Part shown: positions 1 through 40,379 of the stretch, piece by piece
How the letters are laid out: each line of letters starts with the position of its first letter
How positions within the stretch are numbered: position 1 is the stretch's first letter
Origin: Escherichia coli
GTDB taxonomy: Bacteria > Pseudomonadota > Gammaproteobacteria > Enterobacterales > Enterobacteriaceae
Direction: 5' to 3' (one strand)
DNA length: 64,000 nt
Assembly: GCF_030013205.1 (NCBI RefSeq)
Contig: NZ_CP122648.1
Notes under the pieces: generated by a model
Told to the model about the DNA's origin: nothing
What the model saw: only the letters and a program-made list of their open reading frames with translations
The model's database searches: none
Made by a program: the position numbers and the translations under genes

Positions 1-571
1 CGGTGACATCACGAGCAGAAACATCGCAGCCGCCAGTGGGCACCACCACATCATTATTGGCGTAAATATTCCACACAAACTGGAAATCATCGCTGTTATA
101 GTTGTTGGTCTGTCGCAAAATAAGCACGGCAATTAATGAGCCAGCTTTAATCACCACCCCGCCCGCACTGCTCACAGGCGTCAAATAAGGCGCCACCGGC
201 CACGGCTTATCCGTTCTCGAATTATAAACAACCCGCGGCGTTTCACTGGTGGTCGGAAATGGATAGCTACTGCCACTATATTTTACGGTCCCGGAAAAAT
301 TAGATAACACGCCGCCATAAGCCGAGCCTCGTTGCAGTGTGACATAATCTGTAATGGTTTCCGGGTAATCGTTATGGCAAAAGATTTGCGTCGAAAGATC
401 CACGACCAGGTTTTGCCCCACATTCACGGCGGGCGCAAGGTTTACATAAACATTGGCGCTGCCACCGCCAATAGGGATAGCGGTGCCATTGGCGGTTTTA
501 CAGGCGAATGACCAGGCATTTACCGACCAGCCCATCAGCAGTACAGCAAACAGGTTAATAACTCGTTTCAT
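1..571 (-). CDS. fimH: FimH type 1 fimbrial adhesin, N-terminal part (3' end lies beyond window start)
   Basis: Reverse-complement translation from ATG at 569-571 gives signal peptide MKRVINLFAVLLMGWSV and later DFQFVWNIYANNDVVVPTGGCDVSARDVT; last gene of fim operon order; no stop before window edge. Confidence 0.9.
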   Translation of the reverse strand, partial: MKRVINLFAVLLMGWSVNAWSFACKTANGTAIPIGGGSANVYVNLAPAVNVGQNLVVDLSTQIFCHNDYPETITDYVTLQRGSAYGGVLSNFSGTVKYSGSSYPFPTTSETPRVVYNSRTDKPWPVAPYLTPVSSAGGVVIKAGSLIAVLILRQTNNYNSDDFQFVWNIYANNDVVVPTGGCDVSARDVT

Positions 572-590
572 TACAATCATCTCTTCGGCT

Positions 591-1094
591 TCAGCTGTAG
601 GTATAGGTGATGCTAATCACTGCCTGAATGGTTCCCTGAGTGGCTCCGCCATTTACCGTCAATGCTCTGACCTGTAACGGGAAGTGCGCTGATTGTGAGG
701 AATCATCCACCTGAACTGTTTTGGTTGCGCCACTATTCAATGTGTTGCCACTGTCATCCTGTAGCTCTAACTGGATGTTTTGCGCGGTCCCCTGGTTTTT
801 ATAATATCCGGTACTGTCGGCTGCCCCGCTGAAGCTGGCAGTGACCCTCGACGTTCCCACCGGACAATTAGTCAACTCAAGCGCAACATCATGCCAGGCC
901 GATGCCGCCCCGGCAGACATCAGACTGAAAGAATAAAGATCGCCGAGATCTACCGTGGCATTGGTGGTGGAAACCGTGCACGGTTTGGCGACGACCTTAC
1001 CGTTCACCGTGATGGTGACATCGGCTGCCTGTATCGTCGCACTTGCGAGCGCCAATATTGCCGCCAATACATACCCACGTTTGCACCATTTCAT
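591..1094 (-). CDS. fimG: FimG minor fimbrial subunit (167 aa)
   Basis: ORF track protein MKWCKRGYVLAAILALASATIQAADVTITVNGKVVAKPCT...; pilin-like signal peptide; position between fimF and fimH. Confidence 0.92.
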   Translation of the reverse strand: MKWCKRGYVLAAILALASATIQAADVTITVNGKVVAKPCTVSTTNATVDLGDLYSFSLMSAGAASAWHDVALELTNCPVGTSRVTASFSGAADSTGYYKNQGTAQNIQLELQDDSGNTLNSGATKTVQVDDSSQSAHFPLQVRALTVNGGATQGTIQAVISITYTYS

Positions 1095-1106: not shown

Positions 1107-1637
1107 TTACTGATATTCAAGAGTGAAGGTAGCCGTGGCATTGATATGCCCCGCAGTGACAGGCACCTGTGTCGCCATTAGCCGGGCGTAAAAATTCAGC
1201 GTATTTGGTTTACCCGGCGTCAGGGTCGTCCACGAAATCGCGGACGATGGGGCATTAATGGGTATCTGATTTTGTTGCTCATTCAGAAGCTGTATTCCCA
1301 GTCCCGCAACCGCTGACACCGTATTTTCAAGTGCAAGCAGGTTGGCATTGTGGCTATCTGCAACACCGGTAAACCCAACTTTTACGGCAGAAACGGCATT
1401 ACCACAGGGTGACAGCAAAATACGAAATGGAACGACAGGAGTCGTCGCGCCAATGTTGTTAAATTGCTTCGCCGCGTTTTCCATCAGATCAACAGTAAAA
1501 TTGGTTGATTCAGCGGCCACACTACAGCCGTTATCTCTGACATAGCCGCGGATAGTAATCGTGCTATCCGCAGCCAAAGCGTGACTTACCGCCAGCCACA
1601 AAAAAGCGCACAGAAGATAAAAAGGTTTGTTTCTCAT
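1107..1637 (-). CDS. fimF: FimF minor fimbrial subunit (176 aa from second Met)
   Basis: ORF track protein [23 protein letters not shown]...; operon position. Confidence 0.9.
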
Positions 1638-1646
1638 CACGCCCCC

Positions 1647-4283
1647 TTAACGACATTCAGCTGATAGCTGAGTTAATAACTGCTGCTGACTCTCTGGTGG
1701 CAGTTGATAATTGGCGACACAGTGAGCATTTTCCTCTTCTCCCCATTTCACCTGAACTTTTCCCGCTAAAGGCATTCCGCTGAGGTAAACCTGACCATTA
1801 TCCGCAACAATGCCGCTACTCTGGCTACTCTCTGATGTCACCATCGCCCCAAACGGCAGCGGCTTATTATTGTGGGTTAGCGTCATGAGCAGTTTTATCC
1901 CAACGCGCGCTTTAAACTCTGCTCGCACGATCGCCCCACGGGTGGGAACAACGTTAGCGACCGCGTTATCTAAATCGACGTTATCAGCCAGGGTATTGGT
2001 ATCCAGCGCTACTCTGTTCTCCCGATATTCAGTGGCATAAGGCAGCACGGCATAACCGCGCCAGTCGGTACGCACCCCCGTCTGGTTTTCGACTTTTGCA
2101 TCTTTTGCGCCAGGCGCTTTAACAAGCACCACCGTATCGTTTAACGGCTGCCCCAGCGTTACGCCATTGGCATGAGCCAGTACCCCACCGCTGACTCCGT
2201 AATAGAGCTGCTTAATATCATCGCTATGGCTGTAACCGATGTTGGCATTGCCGTAACCACCGCGATAATTCAGCGTGGCGTAGCCTGTACTTCCGCTATT
2301 ACCATCACCTCCCCCGGCGTAACCGGTTTGCACGCTATAGCTGAGGTTGTTGTCTTCCAGCAACGTACCGTATACACCGACCAGATTGGTCATCCGACCG
2401 TTGAGATCGTGTGACATGCTGTAACTGGCACTGGCATGTCGCCACTGAGATTTACTGTCAGAACGCAGCCAGTGGCTGAAAGGAATATTGACGTTAAGCG
2501 CTAACATCTGATCCCGTCCTTTTTGCCAGGCGTTTTTCGTCAGGCTATAGCTGAGCGTCCAGTTGATATCTTCGAATGCAGTATTTAAACCAGCCTGGAA
2601 TTGCTCATCGACATTACTCGTTCCCCAATAAGTTTGATGGCTACCACTCAAATACAGTGTTGATGTGCGCCCGAGTTGCTGAGTAACGGTGAGTTGTAAT
2701 TTCCCGCGTTTGTTATAAGCGAGATTGTAATAGTCGGTGAATTTCGGCTTAACCTGAATAACACCATCCTGTGTTTCGATGTTGTAGCCATTCATTCGAC
2801 TGTATGTTGTATCAGCGAAATTAAAATATCCGCTGGTCGAATAACGGTAACCCACTAACTGAATATTCGTGCCTGATTCATTGAGCGATTTGTTATAGAG
2901 AAAACGCACCGATTGTCCGTCATGCTGACTGTCATCGGGAAGTGTGGAATTAGCCTGCGTCATATCCACAGACAGAGCGCCCAGTGCCCCCATGTTTTTC
3001 CCGATACCGAAATTAAACGCACGATAACGATCCGCCAGTTGCGTTCCACCATATATTGTCCAGCCAGCCGGAAGGCCGTGGAGTAATGTACTCTGGAAAA
3101 AGCGGGGTTTTTCCTGCTGCGCATTTCCACTACGGTATTCTCCTGCCGTAATGGAATAACGAGTATGCCCTTCACGTTGCAAAAGCGGGACTGACGAATA
3201 GGGTACGGTAAAGATCTGCGTGCTGCCGTCAGCCTCTTTAATCGTTACCTGCAAGTCACCACTATTACCTGCGGCATAGATATCGTTGATGGTAAAAGGC
3301 CCCGGCGGCACCGTACTATTATAAATGTCATACCCATTTTGTTTAATAGTGACCTGTGCAGTACCACGAGCAATACCGTGGATCACCGGAGCAAATCCTC
3401 TTTGGCTATCGGGTAACATATTGTCATCTGAGGCCAATTGTGCGCCGCGAAAGTTAATACCATCGAAAATATCGCCCTGGGTATAACCATCACCCAGCGT
3501 CAGCCGGGAACGTAACGGAATTATGTCTCGCTCAAGCCAGGTATTGATATGCTGCCATTTATTTTTGCTACCTGATGAACTGTCGCTACTGTTATAACTC
3601 CAGGTGGTATTGTCGCGTAAACGCCACGCACCAATATTTAACCCACTCTGTAGGTTTAAATATGCATAATGGCTGTTACCCCCAATCCGATTCTGTACAC
3701 TATTTCCGCTGAAATTATAATTGAGCAATCCGGCATTAATACCAGGATCCCATAACTCAGGAGGAATATAACCACGCGCGCGATTACTCATAAATGCCTG
3801 AGGGATCGTCAGGTTGAGTCGCTGCTGACCAACATCCAGATGCGCAGTAGCGTCATGGATCATTGAGGTTAATGGCACGCAGGCATCATCCGCCAGCAGA
3901 TTCATACCGGAGACAGAAGCCGTATTCAGCTCCATACTTGCAAGTTGCGCGCGTGTCAGGCAGGGAACAATCCCTTGTTCACTGTCGCCCGTATTAAATG
4001 TGACATCACGCGTTGCCATATAACCATTATTCAAATAGATATCGACACGATACGTCCCTGGCGGTAATTCTTGCCCATTTTCAAAACGCGATAAATCGGC
4101 CACAGCCTGGGGATCATCCGCTAAAAAGCGCGGATTAAAATAGAGTTCGGCAGATGACAAAGGTGCCTGTGCGGCAAAAGCACAGGCGACAAAGAGCCGG
4201 ACAAAAAAACCAGCCAAACGATGCTTACGAATATGCAAGCATTGTGTGTTTCGCTGGTAAAGTCTTAAATTCAGATATGACAT
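1647..4283 (-). CDS. fimD: FimD outer-membrane fimbrial usher (878 aa)
   Basis: 878-aa ORF MSYLNLRLYQRNTQCLHIRKHRLAGFF...; usher size and position downstream of chaperone gene. Confidence 0.95.
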   Translation of the reverse strand: MSYLNLRLYQRNTQCLHIRKHRLAGFFVRLFVACAFAAQAPLSSAELYFNPRFLADDPQAVADLSRFENGQELPPGTYRVDIYLNNGYMATRDVTFNTGDSEQGIVPCLTRAQLASMELNTASVSGMNLLADDACVPLTSMIHDATAHLDVGQQRLNLTIPQAFMSNRARGYIPPELWDPGINAGLLNYNFSGNSVQNRIGGNSHYAYLNLQSGLNIGAWRLRDNTTWSYNSSDSSSGSKNKWQHINTWLERDIIPLRSRLTLGDGYTQGDIFDGINFRGAQLASDDNMLPDSQRGFAPVIHGIARGTAQVTIKQNGYDIYNSTVPPGPFTINDIYAAGNSGDLQVTIKEADGSTQIFTVPYSSVPLLQREGHTRYSITAGEYRSGNAQQEKPRFFQSTLLHGLPAGWTIYGGTQLADRYRAFNFGIGKNMGALGALSVDMTQANSTLPDDSQHDGQSVRFLYNKSLNESGTNIQLVGYRYSTSGYFNFADTTYSRMNGYNIETQDGVIQVKPKFTDYYNLAYNKRGKLQLTVTQQLGRTSTLYLSGSHQTYWGTSNVDEQFQAGLNTAFEDINWTLSYSLTKNAWQKGRDQMLALNVNIPFSHWLRSDSKSQWRHASASYSMSHDLNGRMTNLVGVYGTLLEDNNLSYSVQTGYAGGGDGNSGSTGYATLNYRGGYGNANIGYSHSDDIKQLYYGVSGGVLAHANGVTLGQPLNDTVVLVKAPGAKDAKVENQTGVRTDWRGYAVLPYATEYRENRVALDTNTLADNVDLDNAVANVVPTRGAIVRAEFKARVGIKLLMTLTHNNKPLPFGAMVTSESSQSSGIVADNGQVYLSGMPLAGKVQVKWGEEENAHCVANYQLPPESQQQLLTQLSAECR

Positions 4284-4349: not shown

Positions 4350-5075
4350 TTATTCCATTACGCCCGTCATTTTGGGGGTAAGTGCGCCATAATCATTTAT
4401 TGTTCGGTAAGTAATATTGCTTCCTGCATCAGAAGGCAATTTAACCGTGCTTTCGCCCATTGGAGGCACCAATGCATTTTCAAGAACCCGGGTTCCGGCA
4501 TTCAACTCTGTTACCGTCAGGTAATAGGGTGTCGGGTTAATCAGAGTCAGAGAATTCGCGCTACGACGAAATCTTAATTTTTCTGCGGCCTGATCGGGTG
4601 GCAACGCTAATTTAGCCGGGCGATAGTACAGTTTAATGCGGCTGATAATTGCGAGCTGTAGCGTATTCTCAGTCAATTTTGATTTATCCATTGACGGAAT
4701 CGCTTTAACGTTCATCCAGAATAAACTTTCCCGATCCTGTGGCAATTGGTTATTTGTTGCATCAAGAATACGTAAGGTATTCTCTTTTTTTCCCTTCATC
4801 GCAAACAGAGGTGGCGTCACGATAAAACGACCATCCTTTACACCATCGGCATTTTCCACCCATGATTGAATTAAATAGGTGCTATTTTCATCATTATTTG
4901 TCACGGCAAGTTGCACTTGTTTTTGCCCTGCCGGATAAATTACGCGAGTCGCACCTAAGGCCACTCCCGCTTCGGCGCGTCCGGCAACCATCATTGCCAT
5001 GAACATCAGGATACCTGCCAGCAAGCAGAATGTTATTTCCTGCGATTTCCTTACATTGACGTTTTTATTACTCAC
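4350..5075 (-). CDS. fimC: FimC periplasmic fimbrial chaperone (241 aa)
   Basis: ORF MSNKNVNVRKSQEITFCLLAGILMFMAMMVAGRAEAGVALGATRVIYPAGQKQVQLAVTNN...; PapD-like chaperone. Confidence 0.95.
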   Translation of the reverse strand: MSNKNVNVRKSQEITFCLLAGILMFMAMMVAGRAEAGVALGATRVIYPAGQKQVQLAVTNNDENSTYLIQSWVENADGVKDGRFIVTPPLFAMKGKKENTLRILDATNNQLPQDRESLFWMNVKAIPSMDKSKLTENTLQLAIISRIKLYYRPAKLALPPDQAAEKLRFRRSANSLTLINPTPYYLTVTELNAGTRVLENALVPPMGESTVKLPSDAGSNITYRTINDYGALTPKMTGVME

Positions 5076-5111: not shown

Positions 5112-5651
5112 TTACTGATAGGTTAAAGAGAACCAGGCCTGGGCATTGGCGATGCCGCCAGTAACCCGACGCCCGGTAGCACGATATTTGGCGATGAAAT
5201 GTAGCGAAGTAGAGCCTGAGTAAAGCCGTTTCCAGTTTGCTGGAGGACGATTAATCGGTACGAGGTTTCCTTCATCATCAAACAACGCTACGCCAATATT
5301 GGTGGCTATCCCTGGCCCCTCTCCCACGGAAAGCACATCTGGATTTTTACCATCCGCGACACCGTGAAACGCCACACCCACACGTTCACTCACCACCGTG
5401 CTACATTCCCGTAAATGAATAACAAAAGGCACCGGTGCGCTATCTTCCCCTACCGCATGAAACCGGTTACTGCTGATTTGCCCCATATTGACTGTCATTT
5501 GTTTATCACCGGCTTCAATCCGGCAAGTTTCCGCAATAATGACGCCCTGAAATTGCATATTTCCGCCGGGCAGCGTGGTGTTCCATTTATTTCCGGCCAG
5601 AGCAAACATTGGCAGCAACGACGCTAATAGAAATAATCTCTTCCTTTTCAT
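5112..5651 (-). CDS. fimI: FimI fimbrial protein (179 aa from Met-45 of the track ORF)
   Basis: Track ORF 5112-5783 contains [20 protein letters not shown]...; the upstream extension would overlap fimA, so the internal Met is taken as start. Confidence 0.8.
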
Positions 5652-5715
5652 CGTTATTTTTATCGCACAAGGGTGGGCATCCCTGCCCGTAATGACGTCC
5701 CTGAACCTGGGTAGG

Positions 5716-6270
5716 TTATTGATACTGAACCTTGAAGGTCGCATCCGCATTAGCAGCACCCGGGGTTGCCTCGCCGATTGCATAATAACGCGCCTGGAAC
5801 GGAATGGTGTTGGTACCGTTATTCAGGGTTGTTTGTGCACTAAATGTCGCACCGTCCAGCGTCAGCTCATTTCCTGTTCTGTCCAGTATCTGCACACCAA
5901 CATTTGTTGCGCTACCCGCAGCTGAACTCTGCAGAGCCAGTACTTTAGGATGAGCACTGTCAATCGCAGTCCCCAAGAAGGCAACAGCGGCTTTTGTGGC
6001 AACACTGGTATCGCAATCATTCAGCTGAATGTTAAAACCGACAGCAGAGCTGGTTGCTCCAGTCTGCTTCAGACTAGCGGTACGAACCTGGCCCAACTGA
6101 ACGGTTTGATCAACAGAGCCTGCATCAACTGCGCAAGCGGCGTTAACAACTTCCCCTTTAAAGTGAACGGTCCCACCATTTACCGTCGTGGGTGTAGTTT
6201 CAGCCAGAGCCGCTGTAGAACTCAGGGACAGAGCCGACAGAACAACAATTGCCAGAGTTTTAATTTTCAT
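5716..6270 (-). CDS. fimA: FimA major type 1 fimbrial subunit (184 aa; allele appears to differ from the K-12 sequence as recalled)
   Basis: [26 protein letters not shown]...[10 protein letters not shown]; major pilin signal peptide and C-terminal motif; first gene downstream of fimS. Confidence 0.93.
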
Positions 6271-6389
6271 ACTGCTTTCCTTTCAAAAAACTATTTCTAA
6301 ATCGACATGGGCAGTCGTTCCGTACACTTTGTTTTGTCAACGAGTTTGACTGCCAACACTGCACAGTTTCCCCCCAAAAGATGAAACAT

Positions 6390-6704
6390 TTGGGGCCATT
6401 TTGACTCATAGAGGAAAGCATCGCGCACAAACTTTTTCAGTTTATTTGTTGACTTTATATTCTATTGTTATCTTTATTTATAGATTTTTATATTGCATGA
6501 GGTGGTTTTTGGAGAGAAGAATGAGGAAGTTGCTTCGAGACACAGAAACGTTAGCTTTACATTTAGCGGAGGTGATGTGAAATTAATTTACAAGAGAAAT
6601 GATTTACATATCAAACAGTTAGATGCTTTTTGTCGTTTTATAATATTTTTATGCTTGAGAAAAAATACGTAACTTATTTATGATATGGACAGTTTTGGCC
6701 CCAA
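6390..6704. promoter_or_regulatory. fimS: fimS invertible phase-variation switch flanked by 9-bp inverted repeats TTGGGGCCA (6390-6398) and TGGCCCCAA (6696-6704)
   Basis: Perfect 9-bp inverted repeats about 300 bp apart between fimE and fimA; AT-rich interior. Confidence 0.9.
6655..6685 (+). promoter_or_regulatory. Sigma70-type fimA promoter inside fimS (TTGAGA, 17-18 bp spacer, TATGATA), here pointing toward fimE
   Basis: -35 TTGAGA at 6655-6660 and -10 TATGATA at 6679-6685 on the plus strand, a few bp inside the fimE-proximal inverted repeat. Confidence 0.6.
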
Positions 6705-6751
6705 TTGTCTTGTATTTATTTGTTTTTTACCTTTACTATCAATAAGTTAAA

Positions 6752-7348
6752 TTAAACCTCTTCTCTTTTTAATTTTTCGTTTATAAGATTATTTCTTTCC
6801 CATAATCCGGCAAAACGAGCAGCATTACTGGCGGTATAACGCACAGTATGGCGAATATTTCGATGCCCGAGATAATCCTGAATTAAACGGGTATCTGCAC
6901 CACGCTCCGCCAGTTCATAACCGCAAGCATGCCTTAACATATGAGGATGAGTCTGCGTTACGGTTCCAGCTTCAATACCGGCATCGCGAATAATGCGATA
7001 GGCCTGCTGGCGAGAAAGCCGACTCCCGCGGCGAGAAATAAATATAGCGTCGGTCCGGTCAGCGCCTTTCCAGTTAGCACGTTCCTGGGTCCAGCGTTCC
7101 ACGGCTTCACGCTCATCAAAACGTAACGGGTGAACGGTAGAAAATCCGTTCTTCAGTCGGCGAATATTTATTCGACCTTCATTAAGGTCAAGGTCCTGAT
7201 AATGCAGATCAAGCAGTTCACTAATACGCATCCCATGCCGATATGCCAACAGAATAAGACAATAATCTCTGGCTCCCGTTGCCCCGTAACAAACCGCCTG
7301 CATCATGGCCTGAACTTCTTTACCGGTAAGATAACGACGTTTACTCAC
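6752..7348 (-). CDS. fimE: FimE tyrosine recombinase (198 aa), ON-to-OFF switching
   Basis: ORF MSKRRYLTGKEVQAMMQAVCYGATGARDYCLILLAYRHGMRISELL...HPHMLRHACGYELAERGADTRLIQDYLGHRNIRHTVRYT. Confidence 0.95.
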   Translation of the reverse strand: MSKRRYLTGKEVQAMMQAVCYGATGARDYCLILLAYRHGMRISELLDLHYQDLDLNEGRINIRRLKNGFSTVHPLRFDEREAVERWTQERANWKGADRTDAIFISRRGSRLSRQQAYRIIRDAGIEAGTVTQTHPHMLRHACGYELAERGADTRLIQDYLGHRNIRHTVRYTASNAARFAGLWERNNLINEKLKREEV

Positions 7349-7824: not shown

Positions 7825-8427
7825 CTATAAAACAGCGTGACGCTGTCGTCCTCTGGCCCTATCCCAGATGCCGTAAAAACGCCCTGCATTGCTGGCGGTA
7901 TACCAGACAGTATGACGAATATTGCGATGCCCAAGATAATCCTGGATAAGTCGCGTATCTATTCCCATATTCGCCAAAGCAAAACCACACGAATGGCGTA
8001 ACATGTGCGGATGAATCTCCAGTGACAACCCGGCATTACCACCGGAAGTCGAGATAATATGGTAAAACTGTTGCCGAGAAAGCGGATTCCCCTTACGCGA
8101 TAAAAATACCCATTCGCTCTCAGCATGCGGGTACGAAGTACGGATACTCAACCAGTTTTTTAAAGCCTGAACTTCTTTGTTCAATAGCGGGTGCGTTGTT
8201 GAAAAGCCTTTTTTTAATCGATGGATATAGATACACTTTGCCTTAAGATCAATATCCGAAATCCTCAATCGACAAATTTCACTCGCCCGGAAACCATGAA
8301 TAAAACAAAGCAAAGTCAGACAATAATTACGTGCTGCATGAGGCCCGGTATTTGCTGCTTTAAGGAGTGATTCGATTTCACTATGGGTCAGGAAGTTCCT
8401 TTTTTTGTTATCAGCCTTATTCTTCAT
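7825..8427 (-). CDS. fimB: FimB tyrosine recombinase (200 aa)
   Basis: ORF MKNKADNKKRNFLTHSEIESLLKAANTGPHAARNYCLTLLCFIHGFRASEICRL...; paralog of fimE upstream of it. Confidence 0.95.
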   Translation of the reverse strand: MKNKADNKKRNFLTHSEIESLLKAANTGPHAARNYCLTLLCFIHGFRASEICRLRISDIDLKAKCIYIHRLKKGFSTTHPLLNKEVQALKNWLSIRTSYPHAESEWVFLSRKGNPLSRQQFYHIISTSGGNAGLSLEIHPHMLRHSCGFALANMGIDTRLIQDYLGHRNIRHTVWYTASNAGRFYGIWDRARGRQRHAVL

Positions 8428-9440: not shown

Positions 9441-9460
9441 GGTATAACAGGTATAAAGGT
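9441..9460. promoter_or_regulatory. Nan box (GGTATA direct repeats), putative NanR operator in the fimB-nanC intergenic region
   Basis: GGTATAACAGGTATAAAGGT at 9441-9460, matching the GGTATA-repeat operator type of sialic-acid regulated promoters. Confidence 0.6.
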
Positions 9461-9721
9461 GCACCGCGATAGTCAATGAGACTGGGCATCTCGTAATCTA
9501 TGGCAAACATCACTTCAGTTCTTTCTCATCGGGTGATGAAAACGCACTTCAGTCTGAAAGGAATATGAAAATGAGATCAACAGACACTCTATTTTATGAC
9601 TCTGGGTAAAATGGATTGAGTAAGCGATATTAGACTGGCCCCCTGAATCTCCAGACAACCAGTATCACTTAAATAAGTGATAGTCTTAATACTAGTTTTT
9701 AGACTAGTCATTGGAGAACAG

Positions 9722-10087
9722 ATGATTGATGTCTTAGGGCCGGAGAAACGCAGACGGCGTACCACACAGGAAAAGATCGCAATTGTTCAGCAGAGCTTTG
9801 AACCGGGGATGACGGTCTCCCTCGTTGCCCGGCAACATGGTGTAGCAGCCAGCCAGTTATTTCTCTGGCGTAAGCAATACCAGGAAGGAAGTCTTACTGC
9901 TGTCGCCGCCGGAGAACAGGTTGTTCCTGCCTCTGAACTTGCTGCCGCCATGAAGCAGATTAAAGAACTCCAGCGCCTGCTCGGCAAGAAAACGATGGAA
10001 AATGAACTCCTCAAAGAAGCCGTTGAATATGGACGGGCAAAAAAGTGGATAGCGCACGCGCCCTTATTGCCCGGGGATGGGGAGTAA
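9722..10087 (+). CDS. insC: IS2 transposase OrfA (InsC)
   Basis: [56 protein letters not shown]... Confidence 0.9.
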
Positions 10088-10950
10088 GCTTAGTCAGCCG
10101 TTGTCTCCGGGTGTCGCGTGCGCAGTTGCACGTCATTCTCAGACGAACCGATGACTGGATGGATGGCCGCCGCAGTCGTCACACTGATGATACGGATGTG
10201 CTTCTCCGTATACACCATGTTATCGGAGAGCTGCCCACGTATGGTTATCGTCGGGTATGGGCGCTGCTTCGCAGACAGGCAGAACTTGATGGTATGCCTG
10301 CGATCAATGCCAAACGTGTTTACCGGATCATGCGCCAGAATGCGCTGTTGCTTGAGCGAAAACCTGCTGTACCGCCATCGAAACGGGCACATACAGGCAG
10401 AGTGGCCGTGAAAGAAAGCAATCAGCGATGGTGCTCTGACGGGTTCGAGTTCTGCTGTGATAACGGAGAGAGACTGCGTGTCACGTTCGCGCTGGACTGC
10501 TGTGATCGTGAGGCACTGCACTGGGCGGTGACTACCGGCGGCTTCAACAGTGAAACAGTACAGGACGTCATGCTGGGAGCGGTGGAACGCCGCTTCGGCA
10601 ACGATCTTCCGTCGTCTCCAGTGGAGTGGCTGACGGATAATGGTTCATGCTACCGGGCTAATGAAACACGCCAGTTCGCCCGGATGTTGGGACTTGAACC
10701 GAAGAACACGGCGGTGCGGAGTCCGGAGAGTAACGGAATAGCAGAGAGCTTCGTGAAAACGATAAAGCGTGACTACATCAGTATCATGCCCAAACCAGAC
10801 GGGTTAACGGCAGCAAAGAACCTTGCAGAGGCGTTCGAGCATTATAACGAATGGCATCCGCATAGTGCGCTGGGTTATCGCTCGCCACGGGAATATCTGC
10901 GGCAGCGGGCCTGTAATGGGTTAAGTGATAACAGATGTCTGGAAATATAG
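10045..10950 (+). CDS. insD: IS2 transposase OrfB (InsD), 301 aa, overlapping orfA as in the IS3 family
   Basis: [37 protein letters not shown]...DNRCLEI with DDE-type region. Confidence 0.9.
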
Positions 10951-11216
10951 GGGCAAATCCAGATATAGCTTACGAAAATTCAAATCAATTAAACATCAGC
11001 AGAGATTTTATACTCAGGTATTTAATCTGGCCCTCTGTTTATTTAAATAATGTGGAAAGAGATTTTTCACAGGAGATATTATACAAAAAATATAAAATAC
11101 AGCTACCGGTTGCCAAAGACACTATAAGCCTGGCAAAAAAATATTACACAACATAAATGCTAATTGTTTATGCGGGCTTTGTATTGCTTTCTGTATCCTA
11201 CAAATGAGTGAAATTT

Positions 11217-14111: not shown

Positions 14112-14762
14112 TTAATTTGATTTATTCGCATCCATCAGCGCTTTTAACTGCTCCGGCGTAAACGGTGGTTTGCGTCGGTGCAACATCGCATGGCAATTAG
14201 GGTACACAGGCAGCAAATCATTAACTGGATCCAGCTGGTAATCCTCTTTAATGGCTGACAGCGGCACCAGGTGATGCACATGGATAAAGCCTTCAGCGAT
14301 ATCACCATAGATCTTCACCAGATCAACACCGCATACGTTGCACTGGCATCCATGATGTTCGACCGCTTTATCTCGGGCCTTTTTATCGCGTTCATAGCGG
14401 TTTACTGTCACCTTTATCGCCGCACCTTCAAGGTATGTCTCCTGCGACGGCAACTCATCCGGGAACAGAACGTCGGCTATGGGAGCCGCAGCGGCTTTAT
14501 CCAGATGAATATGAAATCCCTGCTCTATGAGTAGCTTGACACATTTAGATTTTATTCCGCCGGTGAAATCCGCAGGGGTAAATTGCGTCCCCGTCATCAA
14601 TGTCGCTGCGATGCCAGCAATCGCCTTCGAGGGGTAACGTCGGCCATGATATTCAATCTCATACAACCGCGCAGGCTGGAACTGATGAGTTTCTCCCGCA
14701 TCCCATAAATGGATAGCTTCGATGATATACCGCCGCGGAAGATGATCAGGGAGTTTATTCAT
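14112..14762 (-). CDS. HNH endonuclease-domain protein (216 aa), possibly restriction or defence nuclease
   Basis: C-terminal motif ...CQCNVCGVDLVKIYGDIAEGFIHVHHLVPLS...YPNCHAMLH (Cys pairs and HNH His/Asn residues); N-terminal domain unassigned. Confidence 0.7.
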   Translation of the reverse strand: MNKLPDHLPRRYIIEAIHLWDAGETHQFQPARLYEIEYHGRRYPSKAIAGIAATLMTGTQFTPADFTGGIKSKCVKLLIEQGFHIHLDKAAAAPIADVLFPDELPSQETYLEGAAIKVTVNRYERDKKARDKAVEHHGCQCNVCGVDLVKIYGDIAEGFIHVHHLVPLSAIKEDYQLDPVNDLLPVYPNCHAMLHRRKPPFTPEQLKALMDANKSN

Positions 14763-15099: not shown

Positions 15100-15591
15100 T
15101 TAAAGCAGACCATGTTCGGCAAAGGAGAAAACCTGGCTGCCACCGACTATCAGATGGTCCGGCACCCGGATATCCACCAGGCCCAGTGCCTGTACCAGAC
15201 GTTCCGTGATAAGGCGGTCTGCCTTGCTGGGTGTGACTTCACCGGACGGGTGATTGTGTGCCAGCACCACAGCAGCGGCATTGTGATACAGGGCGCGTTT
15301 AATCACTTCACGGGGATGGACTTCCGTGCGGTTGATGGTGCCGGTGAAGAGGGTTTCACCGGCAATCAGCTGATTCTGGTTGTTCAGATACAGCACCCGG
15401 AACTCTTCACGCTCCAGTCCCGCCATGTTCAGAATCAGCCATTCTCGTGCCGCACGGGTGGAGGTGAAGGCCACGCCGGGTTCATGAAGATGGCGGTCCA
15501 GGGTTTTCAGGGCCCGTTGAATGAGGCTGCGCTCGCCGGGCGTCATCTCTCCGGGCAGAAAGGAAAGCTGTTGCATTGTACTTCTCTCCAT
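15100..15591 (-). CDS. RadC-like JAB/MPN-domain protein (163 aa), CP4-type prophage gene
   Basis: JAMM motif ...VVLAHNHPSGEVTPSKADRLITERL...; start codon abuts the stop of the upstream antirestriction gene. Confidence 0.85.
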   Translation of the reverse strand: MERSTMQQLSFLPGEMTPGERSLIQRALKTLDRHLHEPGVAFTSTRAAREWLILNMAGLEREEFRVLYLNNQNQLIAGETLFTGTINRTEVHPREVIKRALYHNAAAVVLAHNHPSGEVTPSKADRLITERLVQALGLVDIRVPDHLIVGGSQVFSFAEHGLL

Positions 15592-16077
15592 TCAGTCGAT
15601 GATGCGCATAATGGCGCTGCATTCCGGATGCTGCAGGGCGTAATCCCGCAGCCGGTAATAATGGACCGTCATGGCATAACACTCCGTACGACAGGCATGA
15701 TGACTGTACGTCATCAGACAGGCAGCAATGCCGGCAGCTTCCGGACTCATTTCAGCGCGGTTACCGTTCATGGCATTGAACAGTACCCATGTTTCGTCAT
15801 CATCGTCATCCGGTTCGGGTGCCATAAATGCCCCGCCGTTGTTCAGGGTGTACAGATTCCAGATACCACCGCAGTAGTCTTCACACAGACGGTCCATCCA
15901 GCCGAAGACACGGGGCTCCAGGGTCACCCACTGTGGAATGAGGCCAAAGTGCTGCGGCCAGAAGCTGATGCGCTGTTCATCAGGGACGAGGGTGGCAACC
16001 AACTGAGGCTGGTCATTCCCTGATGCAGCGGTTACGGAAACAGAAGATGTGGTGGAATTATGTGAAATGGTTTTCAT
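15592..16077 (-). CDS. KlcA/ArdB-family antirestriction protein (161 aa)
   Basis: Family motif FWPQHFG...CEDYCGGIWNLYTLNNGGAFMAP. Confidence 0.85.
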   Translation of the reverse strand: MKTISHNSTTSSVSVTAASGNDQPQLVATLVPDEQRISFWPQHFGLIPQWVTLEPRVFGWMDRLCEDYCGGIWNLYTLNNGGAFMAPEPDDDDDETWVLFNAMNGNRAEMSPEAAGIAACLMTYSHHACRTECYAMTVHYYRLRDYALQHPECSAIMRIID

Positions 16078-16131
16078 GAAATGACTCCTTAAAGGACAAA
16101 TAAATGCGTGGTTTTCAGGGTAATGGCTGAA

Positions 16132-16950
16132 TCAGCGCAGGCTCTCCAGCAGGGTTTCCGCCATCACCCACAATGCGCGGTTGAGCTTAATGTCAGTGTC
16201 AATGCTGTGAATGGCACGGGTATGGATACGTTTTCCTTTAGCGCTGCGACCTGAAATTCCGCCTTTCAGCATATTCTCCTGAATGGTCTGATAAGCACTC
16301 CACAGGTCCTTACCGTAATCCTCCCGGCGTCGTGGCGTCAGAATGTCGGCGGTGGTGACGGGCTGATGTTCGTCACCATAACGGTAAGTCAGTGCCGCCT
16401 GTGCCAGCGCCTGGCGTGCCGGTGGCGGCAGAATCAGCGACTGCATGGCATCACGCTTTTCCTCAATCCGGTCAAACACGCCCACCACCTCGTAAGCCCC
16501 TTCAATGACTCTGTCCACCACATTTCCCCGGTGCGGAACACGCACTTCCCCCAGAGACTGACCACAGACGCATCCGTTCTGGCAGACGAACCTGAAGTAA
16601 CCCGGCAGCATCTGGTAGCTGGAGGTACCGTCATGAGAGTTGAGCAGAATAATTTCAGGGACATGTTCTCCGTTTATCTCTCCGGCCCGCCGCAGACGCA
16701 GCATGTGTTTTGTGTATCCCCGGCGGCCCGGGTCGCGCACACGGGTCTGGCAGGCGAAGAATGGCTGAAAGCCTTCCCGCTGCAGGCTTTCCAGTACGGT
16801 GATGGTGGGGATGTACGTATAGTTCTGGCTTCGGGACGTGTGTTTATCTTCCCCGAAAATCCCCGGCACATAGTGCATCAGTTCTTCGTGTGTCAGCGGA
16901 CGGTCACGGCGTATCTGGTTCGCATAACCAAAACGACTGGCTAGTCGCAT
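16132..16950 (-). CDS. DUF932-family protein (YafZ/YfjQ-like, 272 aa), cryptic-prophage gene
   Basis: 272-aa ORF immediately upstream of the antirestriction-radC pair, as in CP4-type cryptic prophages. Confidence 0.6.
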   Translation of the reverse strand: MRLASRFGYANQIRRDRPLTHEELMHYVPGIFGEDKHTSRSQNYTYIPTITVLESLQREGFQPFFACQTRVRDPGRRGYTKHMLRLRRAGEINGEHVPEIILLNSHDGTSSYQMLPGYFRFVCQNGCVCGQSLGEVRVPHRGNVVDRVIEGAYEVVGVFDRIEEKRDAMQSLILPPPARQALAQAALTYRYGDEHQPVTTADILTPRRREDYGKDLWSAYQTIQENMLKGGISGRSAKGKRIHTRAIHSIDTDIKLNRALWVMAETLLESLR

Positions 16951-20069: not shown

Positions 20070-20587
20070 ATGTCTGACCGCGCCACTACCACAGCTTCCT
20101 TAACGTTCGAGTCGCTTTATGGCACACATCACGGCTGGTTGAAAAGCTGGCTGACGCGCAAACTCCAGTCTGCTTTTGATGCAGATGACATTGCCCAGGA
20201 CACTTTTTTGCGGGTAATGGTCAGCGAAACGCTCTCGACGATCCGCGATCCTCGCTCCTTCCTCTGCACTATCGCCAAACGCGTGATGGTGGACCTGTTT
20301 CGCCGAAACGCGCTGGAAAAAGCGTATCTGGAGATGCTGGCGCTTATGCCGGAGGGGGGAGCGTCTTCACCTGAGGAACGCGAAAGCCAACTCGAGACCC
20401 TACAACTCCTCGACAGCATGCTGGACGGGCTAAACGGCAAAACACGTGAAGCGTTTCTGCTTTCGCAACTGGATGGTCTGACATACAGCGAGATTGCGCA
20501 CAAACTCGGTGTTTCCATCAGCTCCGTGAAAAAATACGTGGCGAAAGCCGTCGAGCACTGCCTGCTGTTCCGTCTGGAGTATGGGTT

Positions 20588-20591
<4 letters not shown>
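20070..20591 (+). CDS. fecI: FecI ECF sigma factor (173 aa)
   Basis: [52 protein letters not shown]... Confidence 0.95.
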
Positions 20592-23952
<3,361 letters not shown>

Positions 23953-23960
23953 TGTGTTAA

Positions 23961-23982
23961 CGCCCGGCTTGCCGGGCTTTTA
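23961..23982 (+). terminator. Hairpin between fecA and fecB (CCCGGCTTGCCGGG followed by T-rich run), partial terminator/attenuator
   Basis: Inverted repeat at 23963-23976 directly after the fecA stop. Confidence 0.45.
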
Positions 23983-23996
23983 GCTGGAATGTGATT

Positions 23997-34744: not shown

Positions 34745-35590
34745 TTATTCATTTAAAGATTCAAGAAATGTCCAGCCTTTATGAGTAACATAATACATTT
34801 GTCCTTTTGCCCCTCTTTCAATCACAAAATCAAAGGATAACAGTTCGTTAAGTGCGCCCTCCCAACGGGCTACCTCTCTAGCCGAACTTCCACCAAAGGA
34901 TTGATTTCCCGCTTGAATATCCGTGCCACCTAAATGCCTTATCACATAAATTGTTCCGCTATCATCGACACATGCTAATTTCAGCAAACTGAGTGCATCG
35001 GCGGACAAATTACTTTCTGGCAAAGATTGACTTGTATTCGCATCAGGAGAATTGTTAATGGTAGATATAAGAGAAGACAAATAAGGGCTACTAGAAATAA
35101 TTATCGAAAGTTGCCTACGGACTTTTTCTTTGAAATCAGATAAGTCATTAAAAGACTCTATCAATCCCTTTTGCATGCACTCAGTTTTGAACAATTTAAG
35201 AGACTCATATTGTTCTCTATCAAGGCTTTCAGGGGCAACAGGCTTTGAGGAAAAGTAAATCATTGCCGGTTTTCCCGCATTCAAATGACGGTGGATTTCT
35301 TCGACTGTTCCGCTGGCCTCGTTCCCAGTCGGTGAGCCTAGACGAGTCCAAAACACACCGATTAATAAATCACAATCTACTAATAATCTTTGATTAATCA
35401 ACTCCTGAGGCCTAACTCCTAATTCGGGTGATGTATGAGTTTCCCATCCAATTGGTGTCAACATTACTTTTGAACGAGCTGAATTTATATCATTCCACTC
35501 ATGGATCATTTCACGAATGACTTGTCTCTCTTCAGCGACATCACCAGGAGAAGCAATCATTACAGGGATAACAGTTGCTGTGTAAGCCAT
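34745..35590 (-). CDS. Two-domain hypothetical protein (281 aa) with DUF4062-like N-terminal domain
   Basis: N-terminus VIPVMIASPGDVAEERQVIREMI...VDCDLLIGVFWTRLGSPTGNEASGTVEEIHRHLNAGKPAMIYFSS matches the DUF4062 pattern (S..D..EER ... CD..I.....R.G ... SGT..E ... GKP); C-terminal ~120 aa unassigned; start 13 nt after recombinase stop. Confidence 0.65.
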   Translation of the reverse strand: MAYTATVIPVMIASPGDVAEERQVIREMIHEWNDINSARSKVMLTPIGWETHTSPELGVRPQELINQRLLVDCDLLIGVFWTRLGSPTGNEASGTVEEIHRHLNAGKPAMIYFSSKPVAPESLDREQYESLKLFKTECMQKGLIESFNDLSDFKEKVRRQLSIIISSSPYLSSLISTINNSPDANTSQSLPESNLSADALSLLKLACVDDSGTIYVIRHLGGTDIQAGNQSFGGSSAREVARWEGALNELLSFDFVIERGAKGQMYYVTHKGWTFLESLNE

Positions 35591-35603
35591 AAACTCTCCA
35601 TAT

Positions 35604-36164
35604 TCAATCGGTAATAGCTGCTACAGTCGCTCTTGAAACGCCATATTGACGCGCTAACGCACTGATACTCAAACCGCTATTCTTTTTCTCTAAAATCTCT
35701 CTACGGGCTTCTGACGCGATTTTAGGAGGTCTGCCCAATTTCTTACCTTCGGCTTTTGCTCGTGATAGTCCCGCCTGAGTGCGCTCAATCAGCAGATCAC
35801 GCTCCATCTCCGCAACCGCGGCGAGCATAGATAATAGCAACTTCCCAGCGGCAGAAGTGAGATCTGTGTTACCAAGCTGGTGGACAAGAACCTTGATATT
35901 ACGGTCAGCCAGCGCCCTTACCGTTTGCAAGACGTCAATCGCATCACGCCCCAGACGATCAAGCTTCGCTACCACCAACGTTTCACCATCGCGGATTTTA
36001 TTGAGCATTTCAGAAAATGCTTTACGTTGCATTGCCGGAACCTTCCCGCTAACAACATCGGCAAACCAGTAATCAATTTGCCACCCAGCCTGCCCAAGCT
36101 CCAGCCGTTGGTTCTCAGTATCCTGCTGCGATGTCGAAACACGTCCGTAGCCAAAAGTTGCCAT
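35604..36164 (-). CDS. Small serine recombinase, resolvase/invertase family (186 aa)
   Basis: ATG at 36164 with SD GGAG; MATFGYGRVSTSQQDTENQ... (catalytic Ser region), ...VAKLDRLGRD..., C-terminal HTH LSISALARQYGVSRATV. Confidence 0.85.
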   Translation of the reverse strand: MATFGYGRVSTSQQDTENQRLELGQAGWQIDYWFADVVSGKVPAMQRKAFSEMLNKIRDGETLVVAKLDRLGRDAIDVLQTVRALADRNIKVLVHQLGNTDLTSAAGKLLLSMLAAVAEMERDLLIERTQAGLSRAKAEGKKLGRPPKIASEARREILEKKNSGLSISALARQYGVSRATVAAITD

Positions 36165-38293: not shown

Positions 38294-40204
38294 TCAACCT
38301 GTTTGTTTGCCACGCTTTCTTCGCAACGCATCTCTGACAGCATCCAGCCCGTCAGGAATGTTGAATTCCGCTATATCAGGTAACGAAAAATCAATTTTCT
38401 CCACGACTTCAATCATATGAATTGGTTTGAGGTCTTTGCTATATCGCACTTCCGTTTCAGTTTCGCCGCGCACATGCCCAAGTAGCTGCGCTCGTAATTC
38501 TGAGCTAACGCCCTTCTCCTTGAGCAAAGTCGAAACTGAGTGGCGAAAAGAATGGAAAGATTTGCTTCTGTTCCTCTCGAGTTTCAACCGCCCCGCAAGC
38601 AACGATTCATTGAACCATGCGGAAACTGGCCTACCATAGCCTTTTGTTTTATGTGGTTTAAGCTCCGGGAAGAGACGGGTATACCCTGCATCTTTTAAGG
38701 CGTTCACGTAGTCGATGAAACCGAGACTAATCAGCTTTGAATGGAGCGGAATCTTGCGGCGAGCATTAGCATTTTTGAGTTTCTTTCCGCTTTCATTATC
38801 GCTTTCAAGGTTCAAATAATAGACGCCGTCGTCTGCCAGAACATCACTCAGCAGTAACTGAGCGATTTCATTAACTCGCGCCCCCGTCATCAAGCCCAGC
38901 AAAGGTGCCCAATAGTTAAACGGGCAATATTGATGGAATCGCCCTTGCGCATTGCGTTCAACAGTTCCAGCCTCAAACCACGGTAACGAAAAAATCGCTT
39001 TAATTTCATGCGGTTCAAATATGTCAGTGTGATCCTGATCTCGCTCATCTTTATCATCGGATGGAAAAAAGTTTTCGCATGGCGATTTCAGTAGCTTACC
39101 GTCAGCAACAGCCCACTTCATTGCACCATAAATGCCGTTGATATACTTCCTAACGGATTCCTCAGTCATCAATTTATCGCCGCATTCTGCCGCTTTGGCG
39201 ATTAACTGATCCAGCGTTTTCACTCCATATTTAGCTTTGACTAAATTACGGTTTGCTGGGATCGTGCGCAGTTTGCTCTCATAAGCCCGGAGGAAATCGC
39301 GATCAAAATCTTCCAACTGAATGTCACCCATCGCTTCGATCATAAAGCTGAAATAGTTACGGATATCACTTATAGCCGACTCCGATACCTTGCCCTTGCG
39401 CCGATGCTTTAGATATTCAGAGCATAACCACGACAGATTCTTAGTGTAATACTTTCGATTAACATACTCGTTATCGATAGTAGGGGCAGGAGCGGCAAGA
39501 GGCACGGTAGGATGAACACTAGCGACTGGAGGCGTGGTCTTAGCCAGCCAATCAAGCCTTAGGCTTTCTGCATGGACTTTATTGATCAAAAGCGTATCGG
39601 GTTTAATTACCGGCCAACCGGAGGTGAAAAACCAACCGCCTTTAGCGTCGCTTCCGGCAGTTTTGAACACCGAAGCTTCTGAATAACCGTCGCTAATAAT
39701 GTTACGTAAATGTGCTGGTTGCGCAGTGAGTTGCAGATAGCCTTTAGCAACCCCCTCGATACCCTTCTCTTCGCCATAATTAAGAACGTAACTGCCATCA
39801 AGCGGGTCTAGCTCAGCCTCAGAGAGCGCTGCAACATAAAAGCCAGCCTGCCCCGTCGCCAGCCAGAATACGGGCAGATTACGGTTCATCACCGCCTGTA
39901 TTAATTGCGCAACAGGCAACTCAACTGACTGAGCAAAGTTAGAAAGCGAGATCATACCCTCACCAGCAAGCAGCGGGGCGCAGTCACTTAAAGTTCGATA
40001 ATCCAATTGTTCATACTCTTGTAAGGTCTGATACCAGACCGCCAACAGGAGCGCGGACTTCTGCTTTGCTTCATGAAGATCGTGAGTGCCTGTTGAAGTG
40101 TGAATCTCACACTGTCCTGCGTATCGACGAAAACGTTGGGGAATGCTAATGCGGACAACATAAATGCCGCTGGTTCGACGATAGAGTTTATATCGCTGAG
40201 ACAT
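38294..40204 (-). CDS. Large tyrosine recombinase / integrase (636 aa from first ATG; 650 aa from TTG at 40246)
   Basis: C-terminal catalytic region ...GARVNEIAQLLLSDV...HSFRHSVSTLL...LLGH...EVRYSKD (R, H-x-x-R, H, Y); start adjacent to the 3' end of tRNA-Leu, same orientation. Confidence 0.85.
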   Translation of the reverse strand: MSQRYKLYRRTSGIYVVRISIPQRFRRYAGQCEIHTSTGTHDLHEAKQKSALLLAVWYQTLQEYEQLDYRTLSDCAPLLAGEGMISLSNFAQSVELPVAQLIQAVMNRNLPVFWLATGQAGFYVAALSEAELDPLDGSYVLNYGEEKGIEGVAKGYLQLTAQPAHLRNIISDGYSEASVFKTAGSDAKGGWFFTSGWPVIKPDTLLINKVHAESLRLDWLAKTTPPVASVHPTVPLAAPAPTIDNEYVNRKYYTKNLSWLCSEYLKHRRKGKVSESAISDIRNYFSFMIEAMGDIQLEDFDRDFLRAYESKLRTIPANRNLVKAKYGVKTLDQLIAKAAECGDKLMTEESVRKYINGIYGAMKWAVADGKLLKSPCENFFPSDDKDERDQDHTDIFEPHEIKAIFSLPWFEAGTVERNAQGRFHQYCPFNYWAPLLGLMTGARVNEIAQLLLSDVLADDGVYYLNLESDNESGKKLKNANARRKIPLHSKLISLGFIDYVNALKDAGYTRLFPELKPHKTKGYGRPVSAWFNESLLAGRLKLERNRSKSFHSFRHSVSTLLKEKGVSSELRAQLLGHVRGETETEVRYSKDLKPIHMIEVVEKIDFSLPDIAEFNIPDGLDAVRDALRRKRGKQTG

Positions 40205-40294: not shown

Positions 40295-40379
40295 TGGTGC
40301 CGAAGGCCGGACTCGAACCGGCACGTATTTCTACGGTTGATTTTGAATCAACTGCGTCTACCGATTTCGCCACTTCGGC
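40295..40379 (-). tRNA. leuX: tRNA-Leu (CAA anticodon), leuX
   Basis: Reverse complement reads GCCGAAGTGGCGAAATCGGTAGACGCAGTTGATTCAAAATCAACCGTAGAAATACGTGCCGGTTCGAGTCCGGCCTTCGGCACCA with long variable arm and CCA end. Confidence 0.95.

Follow-up and report, generated by a model that had tools for sequence, protein, structure and literature searches.

In which orientation is the type 1 fimbrial switch, fimS, recorded in this Escherichia coli chromosome, can it still invert, and what does the recorded orientation say about the strain? Since 1985 the fim switch has served as a textbook example of phase variation. We addressed these questions in a stretch of 64,000 nucleotides from contig NZ_CP122648.1, hereafter called the window. 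FimB and FimE cleave and rejoin the DNA within 9-bp repeats on a substrate shaped by IHF and Lrp; FimB acts in both directions, FimE prefers the ON-to-OFF direction, and inversion also links or unlinks fimE and a Rho-dependent terminator that lies inside fimS (PMC9993118).

As shown in Table 1, the minus strand of the window carries the order fimB-fimE-fimS-fimA-I-C-D-F-G-H, with genes named by NCBIfam matches and with FimB and FimE at full length. The non-coding interval between fimE and fimA, which contains fimS, measures 481 bp, and by alignment it is 98% identical to and collinear with the same interval of MG1655 and UTI89. Within it, two 9-bp inverted repeats enclose 297 bp, giving an element of 315 bp. 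What was found is thus a repeat-bounded segment of the ~314-bp class in the fimE/fimA position, accompanied by intact fimB and fimE, by homology and by inversion at the repeats. Neither a 9-bp inverted repeat nor a 10/12 promoter match would be significant alone, and further inverted repeats of 8-9 nt are present within the same 700 bp. We accept the feature as real because of homology and context, namely the 98% collinear references, the NCBIfam-named flanking genes and the presence of both orientations in public genomes. It is nearly certain that 6390-6704 is the canonical type 1 fimbrial switch, recorded phase OFF and still switchable.

We note two points of gene annotation in the operon. 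The fimG reading frame encodes 167 aa here, and the RefSeq annotation of identical relatives gives a 147-aa "fimbrial protein" (591-1034) from an internal start. For fimI, the mechanically called open reading frame (5112-5783) begins ahead of the annotated start (5651) and shares sequence with fimA.

Table 1. Features of the fim region and of the adjoining leuX-associated island, in window coordinates
Feature	Position	Strand	Basis or remark
fimH, cut by the window start	1-571	-	
fimG	591-1094	-	reading frame intact, 167 aa
fimF	1107-1637	-	
fimD	1647-4283	-	
fimC	4350-5075	-	best match is the FimC model, below cut-off (258 vs 327 bits)
fimI	5112-5651	-	NCBIfam score above curated cut-off
fimA, major type 1 fimbrial subunit, first gene of the operon	5716-6270	-	NF011741 equivalog, E 4e-55; NCBIfam score above curated cut-off; RefSeq annotation of identical relatives
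fimS invertible element, phase OFF	6390-6704	.	MG1655/UTI89 98% collinear; OFF restriction patterns; exact inversion vs ETEC4070
IRR, fimA-proximal 9-bp inverted repeat TTGGGGCCA	6390-6398	.	limit of naturally observed inversion
HinfI site GACTC, adjoins IRR in phase OFF	6403-6407	.	assay site, PMC6765310
BstUI site CGCG, unique	6422-6425	.	assay site, PMC9993118
IHF-2 match inside fimS, predicted	6609-6621	+	WATCAANNNNTTR, exact
PfimA -35 hexamer TTGAGA, predicted	6655-6660	+	consensus scan
SnaBI site TACGTA, inside the promoter spacer	6666-6671	.	assay site, PMC4374849
PfimA -10 hexamer TATGAT, predicted	6679-6684	+	consensus scan
Inferred transcription start, A, 7 nt past the -10 hexamer and 5 nt before IRL	6691	+	spacing in sequence
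IRL, fimE-proximal 9-bp inverted repeat, reverse complement of IRR, plus strand TGGCCCCAA	6696-6704	.	repeat search; limit of observed inversion
IHF-1 match between IRL and the fimE stop codon, predicted	6737-6749	+	WATCAANNNNTTR, exact
fimE, tyrosine recombinase biased ON-to-OFF, 198 aa, intact	6752-7348	-	NF007371 1-198/198, E 2e-136
fimB, bidirectional tyrosine recombinase, 200 aa, intact	7825-8427	-	NF007370 1-200/200, E 2e-138
HNH endonuclease, leuX island	14112-14762		
Antirestriction/JAB/DUF932 block, leuX island	15100-16950		
fecIRABCDE operon, leuX island	20070-27615		
IS30, leuX island	29480-30631		
AbiJ_NTD4-domain protein, leuX island	31623-32447		
Island integrase, 636 aa, beside the tRNA gene	38294-40204		

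Orientation was tested independently of the promoter prediction by running published PCR-restriction assays in silico, both on the window and on the window with 6399-6695 inverted. For the HinfI assay we used presumed primer sequences, which match the window with 1 and 4 mismatches. HinfI cut the window product into 198 + 362 bp (201 + 359 on the other strand) and the inverted product into 482 + 78 bp, against published sizes of 202 + 357 for OFF and 485 + 74 for ON (PMC6765310). With the SnaBI assay (primers from PMC2978726), the window gave 442 + 161 bp and the inverted form 199 + 404 bp; the published fragments are 440 + 161 for OFF and 403 + 198 for ON (PMC4374849, PMC13276309). BstUI digestion of the 728-bp amplicon obtained with the primers of Table 2 in PMC9993118 yielded 188 + 540 bp from the window and 435 + 293 bp from the inverted form, fragments that deviate by no more than 1-2 bp from the sizes published for OFF (187 + 539) and ON (433 + 293) (PMC9993118). 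The primers OL4/OL20 as printed in PMC5293775 and in a 2021 bioRxiv paper produced an amplicon of 709 bp compared to the published 726 bp, and the OFF call was unchanged. In addition, a primer pair that Table 2 of PMC9993118 gives as a gel-retardation probe is convergent only in the window orientation.

Reference sequences pointed the same way. The UTI89 reference, which is OFF (PMC6458436), aligns collinearly with the window, as does an O157-type fimS bearing the 16-bp deletion that locks this switch OFF (PMC6765310). A phase-ON sequence was available in ETEC4070 (NZ_CP122676.1), a porcine ETEC from Belgium that shares its IS2 and its fimS allele with the window and in which TTGAGA/TATGAT lie beside the fimA-proximal repeat. 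Over window positions 1-50000 the two genomes show 223 positional differences, 219 of them in 6399-6695, and reverse-complementing that segment leaves 4 SNPs. The end points of this natural inversion fall inside the 9-bp repeats, as shifting them outside adds mismatches. Because ETEC4070 equals the window apart from 4 SNPs and the inversion, fimS has been captured ON in the same background with the same IS2. The same allele was also found inverted, at 100% identity, in W13-16 and P15-25. The digests, the probe primers and the collinear references all agree and support phase OFF as the orientation of the window. A preliminary description of this DNA had placed the switch at 6390-6704 and read it as apparently OFF. 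Its coordinates are right, with repeats at both ends and homology to MG1655 and UTI89, and its OFF reading is upheld by the fragment sizes of the three digests, by collinearity with UTI89 and the locked-OFF O157-type switch, and by the gel-retardation primer pair.

We then asked how common this orientation is among complete E. coli genomes. In a sample of 5,426 such genomes, 4,725 matched the region; 4,458 had the window orientation at a coverage of at least 80%, and 251 had the inverted one, giving ~94.7% OFF and 5.3% ON of the 4,709 in which the region is intact. Since OFF is the default state by these counts, the capture of OFF in this assembly is not notable. When both recombinases are present, the ON-to-OFF preference of FimE dominates (PMC9993118), and the OFF excess of the census fits such a FimE-driven bias and shows that the assembled state is not random. 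Eight OFF genomes (ETEC1748, 4067, 4069, 4071, 4079, 6333, 6334 and 1701) match the window over 6100-7000 at 100% identity. Among genomes identical over this interval, an apparent excess of ON (3/11 vs 5%, Fisher p = 0.018) was set aside as unreliable, the genomes being few, clonal and drawn from just two studies. As a separate observation, around a dozen complete genomes among the matches listed, most of them from humans, have an IS1 within the fimE-fimS-fimA region, and the switch occurs in both orientations among them.

It is possible, though we lean against it, that little about the strain can be read from the assembled orientation: the culture would have contained both ON and OFF cells, and the assembler would have reported the junctions with more reads. 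fimS switches phase at the level of the population (PMC9993118), and the near-identical porcine isolates ETEC4070 and ETEC4071 (NZ_CP122673.1), from one Belgian study and with chromosome lengths 5 bases apart, were assembled ON and OFF, respectively. A mixed culture, however, leaves the OFF call for a given sequence intact and limits only the conclusions drawn from it, and the 95:5 excess of OFF over 4,709 genomes tracks the known FimE-driven bias. The opposite orientations of ETEC4070 and ETEC4071 show that which orientation is assembled depends on the culture and not on the strain. We retain the reading of a phase-OFF switch for the sequence, taking it as the majority state of the culture from which it was assembled.

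A second alternative is that the switch has been locked OFF by mutation. In Shigella flexneri a fimB nonsense mutation locks the switch OFF; the O157:H7 16-bp deletion or a disrupted recombinase gene would be other routes. Two features of the window could speak for such a lock: upstream of fimB, an IS2 in the regulatory region shared with nanC, at a distance of 1,204 bp from the fimB start codon, could in principle lower fimB expression, and fimS has a 1-bp insertion beside IRL. We nevertheless consider a lock very improbable. Alignment with the O157-type switch showed that the 16-bp deletion is absent from the window fimS, both repeats are perfect, and neither IHF motif is damaged. FimB and FimE are each complete and have the sequence of functional alleles: FimE is 100% identical to that of MG1655 and FimB to that of O139:H1 W13-16, which is phase ON. 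ETEC4070 shares the IS2 and the 1-bp insertion and yet is phase ON, which rules out the IS2 upstream of fimB as a lock.

The insertion itself is an extra A just inside IRL (A-run 6692-6695), which makes fimS 315 bp long compared to 314 bp in K-12. We separated the extra-A and K-12-type alleles in the census genomes with junction-specific queries of 43-44 nt. The extra-A allele, present in ~655 of ~4,650 complete genomes, was OFF in 619 and ON in 36 (36/655, 5.5% ON), and the K-12-type allele was OFF in 3,798 and ON in 197 (197/3,995, 4.9% ON). These fractions do not differ (Fisher p = 0.56), and we reject the extra A as a source of orientation bias. With perfect repeats, intact recombinases, a fimS free of the 16-bp deletion and a sister genome that is ON, the OFF state of the window is, as judged from its sequence, reversible and not locked.

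We further examined the element and its flanks for promoters with a sigma-70 consensus scan of 6250-6800. The best match, at 10/12, is the plus-strand pair TTGAGA and TATGAT with an 18-nt spacer (Table 1), and it is directed at fimE and away from the minus-strand fimA. Three other matches scored 9/12 (plus 6434-6461, plus 6465-6494 and minus 6614-6585). The total of 4 matches compares with 1.8 +/- 1.5 expected and is within chance for AT-rich DNA. The preliminary description had called the TTGAGA pair the only strong promoter of the element, pointing toward fimE and away from fimA. The first point is fair, as this match has the top score of the region and the other three reach only 9/12, and the scan bore out the direction; its TATGATA at 6679-6685 is the TATGAT hexamer plus one base. 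We take the match at 6655-6684 as the putative fimA promoter, PfimA, following the 1994 work of Olsen and Klemm, who reportedly mapped the fimA start. A full-text literature search returned no relevant match for the fimS promoter sequence or for fimA primer extension, and the designation PfimA is a consensus call that agrees with general descriptions in the literature. The legend to Fig. 4 of PMC9096935 gives the mapped fimA start as an A, and the start that we infer from the spacing is likewise an A.

IHF-1 is described as adjoining IRL and IHF-2 as lying within fimS (PMC9993118), and the two predicted IHF motifs of the window, both exact matches to the consensus, are at these expected positions. 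That the window is really ON, with a minus-strand promoter inside the element as the true fimA promoter, is as good as negligible. The 9/12 match at 6614-6585 is indeed directed at fimA, but it scores no better than chance and shares bases with the IHF-2 motif; moreover, each of the three digests yields OFF fragment sizes, references documented as OFF are collinear with the window, and OFF is defined by PfimA being directed away from fimA (PMC9993118, Fig. 8 legend).

For a phase-OFF switch, the parts identified here suggest the following course of events. The recombinases, with IHF and Lrp, would recombine the 9-bp repeats and so invert the 297 bp between them. The inverting segment would bear the sole fimA promoter, which in the window would sit beside the fimE-proximal repeat and fire on the plus strand toward fimE. 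By this account, which draws on the literature, the minus-strand genes fimAICDFGH would be left without a promoter, and cells so arranged would lack type 1 fimbriae. After inversion, the promoter would lie next to the fimA-proximal repeat and transcribe into fimA. OFF is the majority state in ordinary cultures because the ON-to-OFF preference of FimE prevails over FimB wherever a cell has the two recombinases.

An antisense role of the promoter in the OFF state is also conceivable. No plus-strand intrinsic terminator was predicted downstream of ~6691 before ~8180. In the OFF state, PfimA could give rise to a plus-strand transcript that starts at ~6691, passes over IRL and IHF-1 and continues antisense through fimE (6752-7348), and such a transcript could reinforce the orientation-dependent control of FimE and stabilize OFF. 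We regard this as rather unlikely. Similar antisense ideas were raised in the older fim literature.

We compared the window with known switches. MG1655 (NC_000913.3; fimE b4313, fimA b4314) has the same repeats, promoter hexamers, IHF motifs and restriction sites and is likewise OFF by the in-silico assays. The window differs from it by the extra A inside IRL, one A fewer in the fimE-IRL spacer, about a dozen SNPs, and the IS2 in the nanC-fimB intergenic region. UTI89, 98% identical and collinear over fimE-fimA, differs by SNPs and a 1-bp difference in an A-run, and its genome also encodes the accessory recombinase FimX at another locus (PMC6458436). The locked-OFF fimS of O157:H7 has the same orientation and flanks as the window, whereas the 16-bp deletion of the O157-type element, seen in strain 119, is absent from the window. 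More distant systems, hyxS and ipuS of UPEC, hin/hix of Salmonella and the invertible promoters of Bacteroides, share the principle of a repeat-flanked promoter flipped by a site-specific recombinase (PMC6458436), but their repeats, recombinases and target genes differ from those of fimS.

The DNA upstream of fimB holds further features. The GGTATAACAGGTATA repeat at 9441-9455 is presumably a NanR-type operator that activates fimB. A complete IS2 (9631-10961; 1,331 bp, with a 5-bp target duplication) occupies the nanC-fimB intergenic region, 176 bp beyond this repeat and ~256 bp from the nanC start codon. The same insertion is present in ETEC1748 and ETEC4070 and absent in O139:H1 W13-16. It may change how fimB and nanC are controlled by sialic acid or GlcNAc; it is no block to switching, because ETEC4070 is ON.

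A leuX-associated island (8428-40379) lies between fimB and tRNA-Leu(CAA) (40295-40379, minus), with the gene content listed in Table 1 together with IS3 and IS66 remnants. At 34745-36164 (minus) of the island, the gene for a 186-aa serine recombinase (Resolvase + HTH_7) immediately precedes that for a 281-aa protein weakly matching DUF4062. Beyond the island, two kinds of RNA were detected at Rfam gathering scores: Ysr276, antisense within pepA (46352-46546, minus; 175 bits), and two tandem copies of naRNA4 in the pepA-holC spacer (47380-47551, minus).

Taken together, these data describe an ordinary fim switch in its default state, a finding already known. Its significance lies mainly in correct annotation, OFF being the expected orientation in an assembly. 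The assembled orientation is a majority snapshot of one culture and is not proof that the strain cannot make type 1 fimbriae. The census ratio of 94.7% OFF to 5.3% ON, which does not differ between the 314-bp and 315-bp alleles, provides a baseline for judging the orientation of the switch in other windows.
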